This document shows, in pieces, positions 9,001 through 15,000 of a stretch of 64,000 nucleotides of DNA. Position numbers: made by a program. Numbering within the stretch: position 1 is the first letter of the stretch; every line of letters starts with the position of its first letter. The DNA comes from Escherichia coli (GTDB lineage: Bacteria; Pseudomonadota; Gammaproteobacteria; Enterobacterales; Enterobacteriaceae): NCBI RefSeq assembly GCF_029227855.1, contig NZ_CP074356.1; one strand, given 5' to 3'.

Positions 9001-12000
9001 CAACTCACGGTGCTATTGCCAGAGCAACATTTAATGCACAAATCGGCGGGAAAGTATTAATGACGTTGAAGTACGGTAATAAGAGCGTTCCATTCGGTGC
9101 AATTGTCACACATGGAGAGAATAAAAATAGCAGCATTGTCGCGGAAAACGGTCAGGTTTATCTGACTGGACTTCCACAGTCAGGGAAATTACAGGTTTCA
9201 TGGGGCAAAGATAAAAACTCAAACTGTATTGTCGAGTACAAGCTTCCTGAAGTTTCTCCTGGTACCTTACTGAACCAGCAGACAGCAATCTGTCGCTAAG
9301 GAACAATAGATTATGAAATACAATAACATTATTTTCCTCGGTTTATGTCTGGGGTTAATCACCTATTCTGCTTTATCCGCAGATAGCGTTATTAAAATTA
9401 GCGGGCGCGTCCTCGATTATGGCTGCACAGTCTCATCGGATTCGCTTAATTTTACCGTAGATCTCCAAAAAAACAGTGCCAGACAATTTCCAACGACCGG
9501 TAGCACAAGTCCAGCCGTCCCTTTTCAGATTACGTTAAGTGAATGCAGTAAAGGGACAACGGGGGTTCGGGTTGCATTTAACGGTATTGAGGATGCAGAA
9601 AATAATACTCTGTTGAAACTGGATGAAGGAAGCAATACGGCCTCCGGTTTGGGTATAGAAATACTGGACGGAAATATGCGTCCGGTGAAATTGAATGACC
9701 TTCATGCCGGGATGCAGTGGATCCCACTGGTACCAGAACAGAACAATATTTTGCCTTACTCCGCTCGTCTGAAGTCAACTCAGAAGTCCGTCAATCCGGG
9801 ACTGGTGAGGGCTTCGGCAACCTTTACCCTTGAATTTCAATAATCAGAGTCAGATATGAAAAGACTTCACAAGAGGTTCCTGTTAGCTACGTTTTGCGCG
9901 TTATTCACAGCAACTCTCCAGGCCGCCGATGTCACTATCACTGTTAATGGTCGGGTAGTCGCTAAACCCTGCACTATTCAAACCAAAGAAGCTAACGTTA
10001 ATCTCGGGGATCTTTATACGCGCAATCTGCAACAACCTGGTTCTGCATCAGGCTGGCACAATATTACTTTGTCATTAACCGATTGTCCGGTTGAAACAAG
10101 TGCAGTGACGGCAATCGTGACAGGTTCAACTGACAATACGGGTTATTACAAAAATGAAGGTACTGCCGAAAATATTCAGATAGAGCTAAGGGATGACCAG
10201 GATGCGACGTTAAAAAATGGCGATAGCAAAACGGTTATTGTTGATGAGATCACTCGTAATGCACAGTTTCCACTTAAGGCAAGAGCTATCACGGTGAATG
10301 GAAACGCAAGCCAGGGAACGATCGAGGCGCTAATCAATGTGATCTACACCTGGCAATAACGTCGATTCGATTTTCTTAGCCTCTTTTTAAATCAATTTTT
10401 TAACCTTAGGATATATCATGGGTAAAACAATAAGTATGAAGCTTCTGTTCGGTATTTATCTTCTATTAATGGCAGGCAAAGTTTTTGCCTTCAGTTGTAA
10501 TGTCGATGGCGGGTCAAGTATTGGAGCAGGTACAACCTCTGTTTATGTTAATCTCGACCCTGTAATACAACCGGGCCAGAATCTGGTTGTAGACTTGTCT
10601 CAGCATATAAGTTGCTGGAATGATTATGGCGGCTGGTACGACACTGATCATATAAACCTGGTACAAGGCTCAGCTTTCGCAGGCTCTCTACAGTCATATA
10701 AAGGATCGCTGTACTGGAATAATGTGACCTACCCCTTCCCGTTGACGACAAATACTAATGTATTAGATATTGGTGATAAGACACCGATGCCATTACCGTT
10801 AAAACTCTATATTACCCCAGTCGGTGCGGCCGGTGGAGTTGTCATAAAAGCCGGGGAAGTTATTGCCCGTATTCATATGTATAAAATTGCCACGTTAGGA
10901 AGCGGAAATCCGCGTAATTTTACGTGGAATATTATTTCAAATAACAGTGTTGTTATGCCAACAGGCGGTTGCACCGTTGATAGTCGTAATGTCACCGTGA
11001 ATCTCCCGGACTTTCCTGGAAGCGCAGAAATACCCCTTAGTGTATATTGCTCTAGCGAACAAAAGCTCTCATTTTATCTTTCGGGTGCCACCACTGACAG
11101 TGCCCGACAAGTGTTTGCTAACACAGCACCAGATGCAACAAAAGCATCGGGCGTGGGTGTCTCTCTGATGCGTAATGGAAAAACACTGGCAACAGGAGAA
11201 AATGTCTCCCTGGGGACAGTAAATAAAAGCAAAGTACCTCTTGGTTTAAGCGCAACCTATGGACAAACAGGAAACAAGGTTGCAGCCGGAACCGTCCAGT
11301 CAGTCATTGGTGTCACTTTTATCTATGAATAATTGTGATTTTGACATTGGTCTATGCGCTCCATTCACGAAAATTGCGCGGAAAATTATTTTGTGAAGGC
11401 TATTATCCTACATCTGTAAGAAAATCCGCGCACAATTGAAGCCAGAGTCTTATTTTTTATATTGAAAAATATGTTAATTTAAACACTATGAGAGATGATG
11501 CTTAATTTATCGTATTTAATCTTTTGTTTAACGATAATAGATTAAAATAGAAAGAGAGTAGTCCCCTACTCTTATATATCCATGTTGACGATAATCCCTT
11601 TGTATATACTGTGCATCATCGCTATTACAAATCCTAATAATTCATTTCCACACAGGATAAGCAGATGAAGAAAAAAATTGAATCCTACCAGGGAGCTGCC
11701 GGTGGTTGGGGTGCTGTTAAATCCGTAGCGAATGCAGTACGTAAGCAGATGGATATACGCCAGGATGTTATTGCCATGTTTGACATGAATAAGCCAGAGG
11801 GCTTTGACTGTCCGGGTTGTGCATGGCCAGATCCTAAGCACAGTGCGTCATTCGACATTTGTGAAAACGGCGCAAAAGCAATCGCCTGGGAAGTCACGGA
11901 TAAGCAGGTAAACGCCTCTTTCTTTGCTGAGAATACGGTTCAATCATTACTTACCTGGGGAGACCACGAGCTTGAGGCTGCGGGGCATCTCACCCAGCCT

Positions 12001-15000
12001 TTGAAATATGATGCCGTCAGCGACTGTTACAAGCCATTAAGCTGGCAACAAGCTTTCGACGAAATTGGCGAACGCCTTCAAAGCTATAGTGATCCCAATC
12101 AGGTTGAATTCTATACTTCGGGCCGCACTTCCAATGAAGCTGCCTTTCTTTATCAGCTTTTTGCCCGTGAATACGGGAGCAATAACTTCCCCGACTGCTC
12201 CAACATGTGCCATGAACCGACCAGTGTGGGTTTGGCAACGAGTATCGGTGTAGGTAAAGGGACCGTGTTGCTGGAAGACTTTGAGAAATGCGATTTAGTC
12301 ATTTGCATTGGGCATAACCCTGGTACAAACCACCCTCGCATGTTGACTTCGTTGCGCGCTTTAGTGAAACGGGGAGCGAAAATGATCGCCATCAATCCTC
12401 TACAGGAACGTGGCCTGGAGCGATTTACCGCACCGCAAAACCCGTTTGAAATGCTGACGAACTCTGAGACTCAGTTGGCCAGTGCCTACTATAACGTGCG
12501 CATTGGTGGTGATATGGCGTTGCTCAAGGGGATGATGCGCCTGTTAATTGAGCGCGATGATGCTGCAAGCGCCGCAGGTCGGCCCTCATTGCTGGATGAC
12601 GAATTTATTCAAACGCATACCGTCGGCTTTGACGAGCTACGCCGTGACGTGCTCAATTCCGAGTGGAAAGATATCGAACGTATTTCTGGATTAAGTCAGA
12701 CTCAAATCGCCGAACTGGCTGATGCATATGCCGCTGCCGAACGCACCATTATCTGTTACGGAATGGGGATCACTCAGCACGAACATGGTACCCAGAATGT
12801 ACAGCAACTGGTCAATCTGCTGTTGATGAAAGGTAACATTGGCAAGCCTGGTGCGGGTATCTGCCCACTACGAGGTCACTCTAATGTACAGGGCGACCGA
12901 ACCGTCGGTATCACCGAGAAACCGTCTGCAGAGTTTCTGGCTCGCCTGGGTGAGCGCTATGGTTTCACCCCACCTCATGCACCTGGACATGCTGCAATTG
13001 CCAGCATGCAAGCAATATGTACGGGGCAGGCTCGAGCATTGATCTGCATGGGGGGCAACTTTGCTCTGGCAATGCCAGATCGGGAAGCGAGCGCTGTACC
13101 GTTAACACAATTAGATCTGACGGTACACGTAGCCACTAAGCTTAACCGCTCTCATCTGCTGACCGCACGGCATAGCTATATTCTGCCGGTTCTGGGACGC
13201 AGCGAGATTGACATGCAAAAAAGCGGTGCGCAGGCGGTAACCGTTGAGGATTCAATGTCGATGATTCATGCCTCGCGTGGCGTGTTAAAACCCGCCGGTG
13301 TAATGCTGAAATCAGAGTGTGCAGTGGTCGCGGGAATCGCGCAGGCAGCACTACCCCAGAGCGTGGTAGCCTGGGAGTATCTAGTGGAAGATTATGATCG
13401 CATTCGCAATGACATTGAAGCTGTGCTGCCAGAGTTCGCCGACTATAACCAGCGCATCCGTCATCCCGGTGGTTTTCACCTGATAAATGCAGCTGCTGAA
13501 AGGCGCTGGATGACGCCGTCAGGTAAGGCTAATTTCATTACCAGTAAAGGGCTGTTAGAAGATCCCTCTTCAGCGTTTAACAGTAAGCTAGTCATGGCGA
13601 CAGTACGCAGTCACGATCAGTACAACACGACGATTTATGGTATGGATGATCGCTATCGAGGGGTATTCGGTCAACGAGATGTGGTCTTTATGAGTGCTAA
13701 ACAAGCTAAAATTTGCCGTGTAAAAAACGGCGAAAGAGTTAATCTTATTGCGCTTACGCCAGACGGTAAGCGAAGCTCACGCCGCATGGATAGATTAAAA
13801 GTGGTCATTTACCCTATGGCTGACCGCTCACTGGTGACCTATTTTCCAGAATCGAATCACATGCTAACACTTGATAACCACGATCCATTAAGTGGCATTC
13901 CTGGCTATAAAAGTATTCCGGTTGAATTAGAACCATCAAATTAATTCGCCTCCTCATTTCTTCTGCTGTCATCCGCACAGCAGAAGAATTTCTCATTGAC
14001 CATTGTCGCGCAATTTACTCACATGTGCTAAATTAAACTGCTCGTTATAAGATATATACCTCCGCCTACAGCTGTAAGAAACTCCGCTCAGTACTGAAGC
14101 GCCAGTCCTATTTCCTCTATTCTCCAGCCTGTTATATTAAGCATACTGATTAACGATTTTTAACGTTACCCGCTAAATAAACATATTTGAAATGCATGCG
14201 ACCACAGTGAAAAACAAAATCACGCAAAGAGACAACTATAAAGAAATCATGTCTGTAATTGTGGTTGTCTTATTACTGACACTTACGTTGATAGCCATTT
14301 TTTCGGCAATTGATCAGCTGGGTATTTCAGAAATGGGTCGCATTGCAAGGGATCTTACACATTTCATTATCAATAGTTTGCAAGACTGAAAATAAACAGC
14401 AAATTATAAATATGAAATGTTAAAAAAGTATCGATAAAAACTTTATTGTTTTAAGGAGATAAAATGTCGCTCGTTTGTTCTGTTATATTTATTCATCATG
14501 CCTTCAACGCTAACATTTTAGATAAAGATTACGCCTTCTCTGACGGCGAGATCCTGATGGTAGATAACGCTGTTCGTACGCATTTTGAACCTTATGAGCG
14601 GCATTTCAAAGAAATCGGATTTAATGAAAATACCATTAAAAAATATCTACAATGCACTAACATCCAGACAGTGACGGTGCCTGTTCCTGCGAAGTTTTTA
14701 CGTGCTTCAAATGTACCGACTGGATTGCTTAATGAAATGATTGCTTATCTCAACTCGGAAGAACGCAATCATCATAATTTTTCAGAACTTTTGCTTTTTT
14801 CTTGCCTGTCTATTTTTGCCGCATGCAAAGGTTTCATTACACTATTAACTAACGGTGTGCTATCCGTTTCCGGGAAAGTGAGAAATATTGTCAACATGAA
14901 GCTGGCGCACCCATGGAAGCTGAAAGATATTTGTGACTGCCTGTACATCAGTGAAAGCCTGTTGAAGAAAAAACTTAAGCAAGAGCAAACGACATTCTCA

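Follow-up and report, generated by a model that had tools for sequence, protein, structure and literature searches.

Paralogous promoters probably underlie the extended identity between the EvgA operators of ydeP and safA-ydeO in Escherichia coli

EvgA is described as a BvgA-like regulator (PMC9496106). Both the ydeP and the safA-ydeO operon of Escherichia coli are reported as directly EvgA-activated (PMC8174306, PMC7174508, PMC9496106, PMC11210196), with ydeP under direct EvgA control (PMC8174306, PMC7174508) and the safA-ydeO promoter bound by EvgA (PMC9496106). At the promoter Pfha, BvgA binds as head-to-head dimers, three in number and placed at 22-bp intervals; the strong distal site is followed by two weaker ones, the second of which adjoins a poor -35, and the C-terminal domain of the RNA polymerase alpha subunit (alpha-CTD) occupies another face of the same DNA (PMC7250471). 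Here we examine a 64-kb stretch of E. coli DNA (contig NZ_CP074356.1 of assembly GCF_029227855.1; hereafter the window), in which a 25-bp sequence containing an EvgA box occurs upstream of both operons. The EvgA motif was reportedly defined, footprinted, and mutated upstream of ydeP and of b1500/safA-ydeO by Masuda & Church in 2003 and Itou et al. in 2009, and the box is reported to be bound by EvgA in vitro and to be needed for induction. The two sites of the window are these already known operators. The feature is real and not new; its extra sequence identity is explained by promoter paralogy, and it provides a modest lead on promoter architecture.

The features on which this comparison is based are the following.
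11405..11422, plus strand: EvgA box of the ydeP promoter (ATCCTACATCTGTAAGAA), one mismatch to TTCYTACANNTGTARGAA, centre at about -74.5
14063..14080, plus strand: EvgA box of the safA-ydeO promoter (CGCCTACAGCTGTAAGAA), two mismatches to the consensus
11406..11430, plus strand: 25-mer, ydeP copy (tcctacatctgtaagaaaatccgcg)
14064..14088, plus strand: 25-mer, safA copy (gcctacagctgtaagaaactccgct)
11405..11505, plus strand: ydeP promoter module, paralogous to 14063-14163; it begins with the box and ends near +18 of the transcript
14063..14163, plus strand: safA-ydeO promoter module, paralogous to 11405-11505
Positions downstream of a box are counted from its last base as after-box positions, +n being 11422+n in ydeP and 14080+n in safA.

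The EvgA box was defined as the 18-bp inverted repeat TTCYTACA-N2-TGTARGAA, reportedly the consensus of Masuda & Church 2003, which is re-derived by aligning six E. coli EvgA sites. With up to three mismatches, the pattern hits only these two sites in the 64 kb, and the core CCTACA-N2-TGTAAG likewise occurs without mismatch only here. In K-12 the same pattern also finds the frc, yfdX (two), emrK/evgA, and yegR boxes, of which the frc box is a perfect match to the consensus; the region upstream of gadE holds no EvgA box with up to five mismatches. Masuda & Church reportedly described EvgA sites in six upstream regions in 2003, the same six as found here. Among 10 genomes the ydeP box varies only at box position 2 and in or beside the central spacer. 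The original prediction that both sites lie upstream of EvgA-activated acid-resistance genes agrees with the gene identities and with published direct regulation, and the mismatch counts above confirm the sites as EvgA boxes. As sites they are textbook EvgA operators atop the E. coli acid-resistance cascade, with the same motif in front of the same two operons as already known. What is added here is about 83 nt of further homology between the two promoters, a fixed distance from box to -10, and the conservation across promoters and genera of the promoter-proximal flank and of a block at after-box +24..+34.

The two 25-mers were found exactly where they had been quoted, but their identity, given as 23/25, is 21/25, with mismatches at positions 1, 8, 19, and 25; a count of 21/23 holds only with both end positions dropped. 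Of the inner mismatches, one lies just 5' of the two-base central spacer of the box and the other between AAA and TCCGC. The EvgA inverted repeat accounts for 18 of the 25 bases. Chance resemblance or a base-composition artefact has in its favor the AT-richness of both intergenic regions and nothing else. When the ydeP 25-mer was compared with every window position on both strands, the second-best match reached 17/25, and in 30 shuffled windows the best match was 15-18. The pair is therefore not a product of chance (z-scores of 6-10 against shuffles and all other window positions), and we regard that explanation as already refuted and of negligible probability. A repeat-finding run with two parameter sets did not list the pair despite an exact common 10-mer (CTGTAAGAAA), which we treated as a miss of the tool.

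The resemblance is not confined to the 25-mers. In register and without gaps, the promoters are identical at 58/84 positions over 11407-11490. The 60 nt 3' of the 25-mer match at 37/60 positions, against a window background of 15.4±3.5, and form the best non-self match in the window; upstream of the box only 14/60 positions match and the similarity ends abruptly. With the box excluded, a local alignment runs ungapped over after-box +3..+83 (z=10.4 versus shuffles), and the paralogues are identical at 52/83 positions of this tract; here +1/-1 scoring was used, because the stringent +2/-3 scheme underestimates a tract of 63% identity. Over +1..+70, identity in register is 44/70, compared with 19.2±3.7 in the shuffle null. 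The safA promoter is the sole second copy of the ydeP promoter in the window. A dispersed repeat or mobile element was also considered and is ruled out by a 161-nt promoter query, which hits 5324 E. coli genomes at a median of 1 place each.

An outgroup Escherichia locus (L003), whose promoter shares 80-90% identity with each of the 5325 E. coli records that it matches, dates the duplication. The ydeP orthologues agree at 73/83 positions and the safA orthologues at 64/83, in both cases more than the 52/83 of the paralogues; the sequences group by locus, and the duplication thus predates the split from the L003 lineage. Positions identical between the paralogues are more often conserved in the orthologues (43/52) than the others (16/31; Fisher p=0.005), indicating that the shared sequence is partly held by selection. 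Four blocks are identical in ydeP, safA, and both L003 orthologues: T.CGC.CA (+3..+10), TGAAG (+15..+19), AGTC.TATTT (+24..+33), and TG.TA..TTAA (+50..+60). In L003 (3650-3738) the DNA directly 5' of the ydeP box is unrelated to that of E. coli and the alignment starts at the box, which marks the box as the 5' boundary of the conserved module.

The two 25-mers are thus probably the promoter-distal ends of paralogous EvgA-dependent promoters, with a flank identity that derives from shared ancestry and not from a generic EvgA motif. They match beyond the core because the whole promoters, about 100 bases each, are old copies of each other, and the flank is alike in both copies because these stem from a single ancestral promoter and the interval changes slowly. 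As in a local segmental duplication, the copies are collinear and ungapped, with about 63% identity over about 100 bp that include operator, core promoter, and start, and they lie 2.66 kb apart in the same orientation in neighboring operons of one regulon. Unlike in such a duplication, the promoter alone is duplicated, and the leaders and genes (ydeP versus safA) are unrelated. Co-regulation of ydeP and safA-ydeO would then follow from their duplicated promoters. Some points weigh against this view. Unrelated EvgA promoters, too, match in register slightly more often than the background (emrK versus ydeP or safA, 28-29/70), and convergent selection on a rigid architecture could give some in-register similarity. 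The flank region is as conserved as the box at three other promoters; because its conservation between E. coli and Yersinia equals that of the box, a lack of any EvgA role cannot be claimed for the region as a whole.

The original prediction had traced conservation past the core into a shared AAA-n-TCCGC flank and proposed that this flank may be a functional part of the EvgA site. The flanks of the two copies, and the last box bases (upper case) with the following bases at the other E. coli EvgA boxes, are as follows.
11425..11429, plus strand: TCCGC flank, ydeP copy, after-box +3..+7, about -63..-59; common only to the safA promoter
14083..14087, plus strand: TCCGC flank, safA copy; TCCGT in strain ECCRA-119
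frc: ...GAAtaacatc
yfdX, proximal box: ...GATaaccctt
yfdX, distal box: ...GACtaaaata
emrK: ...GAAttgtatt
yegR: ...GAAatgttgt

Conservation beyond the core is real and continues for about 83 nt, but the first two A's of the AAA already lie inside the 18-bp box (TGTAAGAA), and the identity of the flank between the copies (6/8) is not above the 61% found over the remaining tract. When other EvgA targets were searched, A-n-TCCGC was absent after all five other boxes (frc, yfdX twice, emrK/evgA, and yegR, in four upstream regions). It is also polymorphic at both loci: the ydeP flank of L003 reads AATTCGCG (TTCGC), and the safA flank of strain ECCRA-119 reads ACTCCGTT (TCCGT). An extended flank as a general part of the EvgA site is contradicted by these observations, and sequence comparison does not support A-n-TCCGC as an extension of the generic recognition sequence; TCCGC is merely the ydeP/safA version of a promoter-specific after-box interval. 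Part of the proposal survives, in that the interval +1..+13 is constrained at the promoters examined. We note as a caution that common flanks of paralogous sites should not be read as extended motifs.

A primary EvgA dimer might nonetheless read a longer site, with A-n-TCCGC as a sequence-specific extension that makes both promoters high-affinity targets. The flank adjoins the promoter-proximal half-site and is largely shared by the copies, the 36 nt that span the safA box and its flank show at most one base difference in 5370 E. coli genomes, and ydeP induction is very rapid and strong (PMC7174508). Against this, the flank is missing from every other EvgA box, even the perfect-consensus frc box, it borders a symmetric dimer site on a single side, it has the natural variants TTCGC and TCCGT, and it is conserved no better than the rest of the 83-nt tract. 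We consider a longer site of this kind improbable. A BLAST search with the 36-nt query against all E. coli genomes was too insensitive to reveal a third copy, as the ydeP paralogue itself was not recovered.

Alternatively, both promoters could be bound at the flank and the blocks downstream by a shared second regulator. Candidates are an everted repeat of the RcsB/BvgA type that overlaps the proximal half-site (TAAGAA-N-TCC...), or the factor behind YdeO/PhoP feedback or H-NS silencing. The string TAAGAAAATCCGC resembles the RcsAB box. It also resembles the Pfha BvgA site TAAGAAATTTCCTA (PMC7250471); moreover, YdeO represses its own expression and, indirectly, that of ydeP (PMC11210196), PhoP lowers safA promoter activity (bioRxiv 10.64898/2026.05.06.723403), and H-NS binds both promoter regions (PMC2984483). 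The spacer of the everted repeat is, however, one base short (TAAGAA-N2-TCC versus N3), its second arm is TCCGC and not TCCTA, and no motif of another factor was identified in this analysis. We therefore rejected the everted repeat TAAGAA-N3-TCCTA as a candidate, the copies reading TAAGAA-AA-TCCGC and TAAGAA-AC-TCCGC, with an N2 spacer and the wrong arm compared with TAAGAAATTTCCTA, and we judge a second shared regulator to be unlikely overall.

Promoter paralogy, the reading we prefer, extends to the core promoter and the start of transcription. The ydeP leader is 178 nt long (PMC11210196).
11488, plus strand: ydeP transcription start (-178 mapped through K-12), the final A of ATTTAAACACTA, after-box +66
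11472..11480, plus strand: extended -10 of ydeP, TGTTAATTT (TGn + TAATTT), 7 nt upstream of the reported start
14130..14138, plus strand: extended -10 of safA, TGTTATATT, at the same offset as in ydeP and invariant in 11 genomes

By homology with ydeP, the safA start is predicted at about 14145-14146. The extended -10 of safA in L003 is TGCTATATT, and in both L003 promoters TG and TAnnnT are kept and the intervening base is changed. No -35 match was found at 17-bp spacing from TAATTT or TATATT in the ydeP and safA promoters. A promoter proposed by a scan, TTGAAG-16-TATATT (11436-11463), was rejected: its start would fall about 17 nt 5' of the start given by the published leader, the safA hexamer at that register varies (TCTATT/TCTTTT; TCCTGT in L003), and in L003 the hexamer of ydeP is TTTATT.

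In the best-supported mechanism, phosphorylated EvgA binds the 18-bp repeat centered at about -74.5 and activates sigma-70 RNA polymerase at an otherwise weak, -35-less, extended -10 promoter. The module consists of the EvgA repeat, a constrained bridging tract, the extended -10 (TGnTAnnnT), and the initial ~18 transcribed nt; by analogy, the bridging tract may be constrained by contacts with EvgA or RNA polymerase. In this scheme EvgA binding and activation and the ydeP start come from the literature; what was computed here is the paralogy and how far it reaches, that the flank is missing elsewhere, and the constraint on the interval.

We aligned six E. coli EvgA promoters (ydeP, safA, frc, yfdX, emrK, and yegR) on the box, with these elements in the two paralogues.
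11431..11432 (ydeP), plus strand: CA, after-box +9/+10, in register in 6/6 E. coli promoters
11446..11455, plus strand: AGTCTTATTT block of ydeP, after-box +24..+33, about -42..-33
14104..14113, plus strand: AGTCCTATTT block of safA, after-box +24..+33

The CA dinucleotide comprises the sole residues of the after-box interval common to all six promoters, and it is also present in the Yersinia and Enterobacter emrK promoters. The +24..+33 block is the same in both paralogues and both L003 orthologues except for one Y position. Across the six promoters in register, TCYKATT at +26..+32 has a majority count of 35/42, reached by 0/5000 random registers. A TAnnnT hexamer, read by eye, lies at +53/54 in 5/6 promoters, yegR being ambiguous.

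Yersinia provides an independent comparison of the same interval. In a search with EmrK, Yersinia homologues were found at 81-83% identity, on contigs that carry the whole syntenic island yfdX-frc-oxc-yfdV-yfdE-evgS-evgA / emrK-emrY. The loci used were those of Y. canariae (L066 1-17143, CP043727.1) and Y. vastinensis (L067); a search for Frc homologues was uninformative, and the locus was reached via the yfdE homologue. Yersinia EvgA is 92% identical to that of E. coli. Enterobacter cancerogenus (L064) has the evgS-evgA/emrKY part, with an EvgA of 81% identity. In these outgroups the spacing between EvgA box and start codon is nearly that of E. coli. When the emrK, frc, and yfdX promoters are pooled, E. 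coli and the two Yersinia species show the following identities.
Upstream of the box: 55%
Box: 83%
After-box +1..+13: 87%
After-box +14..+23 (linker): 55%
After-box +24..+34: 89%
After-box +35..+66: 63%
After-box +67..+100: 53%

The contrasts between segments have a Fisher p of ~1e-5, a value inflated by the kinship of the two Yersinia species. From these alignments the after-box interval seems to be functional at all EvgA promoters, with a sequence that is promoter-specific. The DNA that links box and core promoter matches the box in its degree of conservation, both from promoter to promoter and between the genera Escherichia and Yersinia, and this yields a testable prediction on how EvgA, centered at about -74.5, reaches RNA polymerase.

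A rival explanation, by analogy with BvgA, is that the flank belongs to a secondary, low-affinity EvgA site. The strong distal repeat would nucleate further dimers toward the -35, about two helical turns apart, TCCGCnCA (+3..+10) being a degenerate half-site of a second dimer and GTCYTATT (+25..+32) a half-site of a third; such an array can coexist with paralogy. Known BvgA promoters (Pfha, Pfim3, and Pptx) also have a strong distal repeat of TTCCTA-like half-sites, a poor -35, and conserved DNA between strong site and core promoter, and the ydeP and safA promoters likewise combine a distal high-affinity repeat with a weak or absent -35 (box at -74.5, extended -10). They differ in the repeat itself (TTCCTACA-N2-TGTAGGAA for EvgA versus TAAGAAA-TTTCCTA for BvgA), and occupancy by several EvgA dimers is putative, its half-site-like elements lying at 20 and 42 bp with one half of each conserved.

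When TTCYTACA was sought in the six promoters, in both orientations and at every offset from -55 to +99, only forward +3 and +25 averaged 4.3/8 or more outside the box. Both reach a mean of 4.5/8 against a background of 2.46±0.65, and their distances to the left half-site of the primary box are 20 and 42 bp. In random registers of the six promoters, P(max)=0.02 and P(second)=0.0002; with four independent lineages, P(second)=0.002-0.03. The invariant CA, the TCYKATT count, and the Yersinia profile, in which both elements are conserved on either side of a variable linker, are consistent with an array, and both natural flank variants (TTCGCGCA and TCCGTTCA) shift toward the half-site consensus. 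However, a weight matrix built from 12 primary half-sites scores every second dimer negative (best -6.9, at +22 in ydeP; none in safA), and conservation at each putative secondary site is confined to its upstream half. Successive elements are 20 and then 22 bp apart and not a uniform 22. The promoters ydeP and safA, and probably frc and yfdX, lack independence from each other, and P(max) is 0.23 for one subset of four lineages. In addition, the blocks coincide with the position inferred for the alpha-CTD in a class I arrangement, and conservation does not name the binder. The phasing of half-site-like maxima at +3 and +25 thus has a P between 0.0002 and 0.23, depending on set and statistic, alongside a negative weight-matrix scan, and we regard a multi-dimer array as possible but somewhat doubtful.

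In a more general form, we tentatively propose that EvgA promoters are rigidly spaced composite operators spanning about 50 bp, in which the 18-bp repeat is followed by elements at +1..+13 (with the invariant CA at its end) and +24..+34 (with TCYKATT as its core) and a -10 at +53/54. The two elements, which are separated from the distal half-site by about two and four helical turns, may be low-affinity EvgA dimer sites or alpha-CTD sites, and TCCGC may be the ydeP/safA-specific version of the first. Tripartite EvgA promoters, possibly similar to BvgA arrays, are the modest new hint of this analysis.

Other resemblances among EvgA promoters were also observed. On the minus strand, frc (L001 13476-13485) and yfdX (L001 14470-14479) have the exact common 10-mer CTCTCTGATT at after-box +23..+32; Yersinia has kept this 10-mer at frc and almost entirely at yfdX, and the two may be a second pair of related promoters. 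The emrK after-box interval +1..+26 (L001 3488-3513) matches the yegR-yegS intergenic region in the yegS direction (L058 8481-8506) at 21/26 positions (z=5.7; TTGTATTGCAAAAGCCACGGTTTAGT versus TTATATTGAAGATGCCACTGTTTAGT), with no EvgA box in front of the yegS-side copy. The yegR promoter (L058 8338-8354, minus strand) contains ATTTAAACACTA-GAGAG, matching the ydeP -10/start region (window 11477-11494, covering -11..+1 and beyond) except for one extra T in ydeP and lying 5 bp farther from the EvgA box; a perfect TATAAT is also present in yegR, at after-box +37..+42.

The occurrence of the complete evgAS island in Yersinia and of evgSA/emrKY in Enterobacter qualifies the statement in reviews that EvgAS is present only in E. 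coli and Shigella (PMC8174306, PMC9496106). High protein identity, compared with ~55% in unconstrained intergenic DNA, suggests on sequence grounds that the evg island spread by horizontal transfer. The proximal yfdX box of Yersinia has TGTCAG in place of TGTAAG in its promoter-proximal arm. The two-box yfdX arrangement, with boxes 38 bp apart, is kept in Y. vastinensis, whose distal box is TTCTTACCGGTATAAGAC (L067 2607-2624; L066/L067 ~2643-2662), and Y. canariae (L066) has no distal yfdX box with up to three mismatches.

The surrounding segment of the window is the ydeQ-ydeP-safA-ydeO region of E. coli, 100% identical to strain JNEC-KY178 and found in 5394/5426 complete E. coli genomes. Records annotated as plasmids hold 6/5410 matches to window 11000-15400 among complete E. 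coli assemblies. The genes and a terminator-like element are positioned as follows.
11665..13944, plus strand: ydeP coding sequence
13958..13988, plus strand: terminator-like hairpin 3' of ydeP, a 12-bp stem followed by a T-rich tail
14192..14389, plus strand: safA coding sequence
14464..15225, plus strand: ydeO coding sequence

The hairpin at 13958-13988 separates the ydeP transcription unit from the safA promoter. In this strain the ydeP 5' leader (11488-11664) is 177 nt long and folds better than shuffled sequences (-37.1 kcal/mol, z=-2.57); it includes a hairpin at 11555-11572 (AGAGTAG-TCCC-CTACTCT, then TATATAT). Rfam shows no family in 11000-15500, the ydeP leader included, and CsrA is reported not to bind this leader (PMC11210196).

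YdeP homologues were also found in Edwardsiella (L004, L005, and L007; 84% amino-acid identity) and Yersinia rohdei (L006; 67%). Their upstream regions show no EvgA box and no similarity to E. coli, and the ydeP promoter and leader are therefore Escherichia-specific. A contig binned as 'Candidatus Nanosynbacter sp.' (L002, JARKOR010000108.1) carries an E. coli ydeP-safA locus with 99% protein identity and K-12-type promoters, which is almost certainly a binning contamination.

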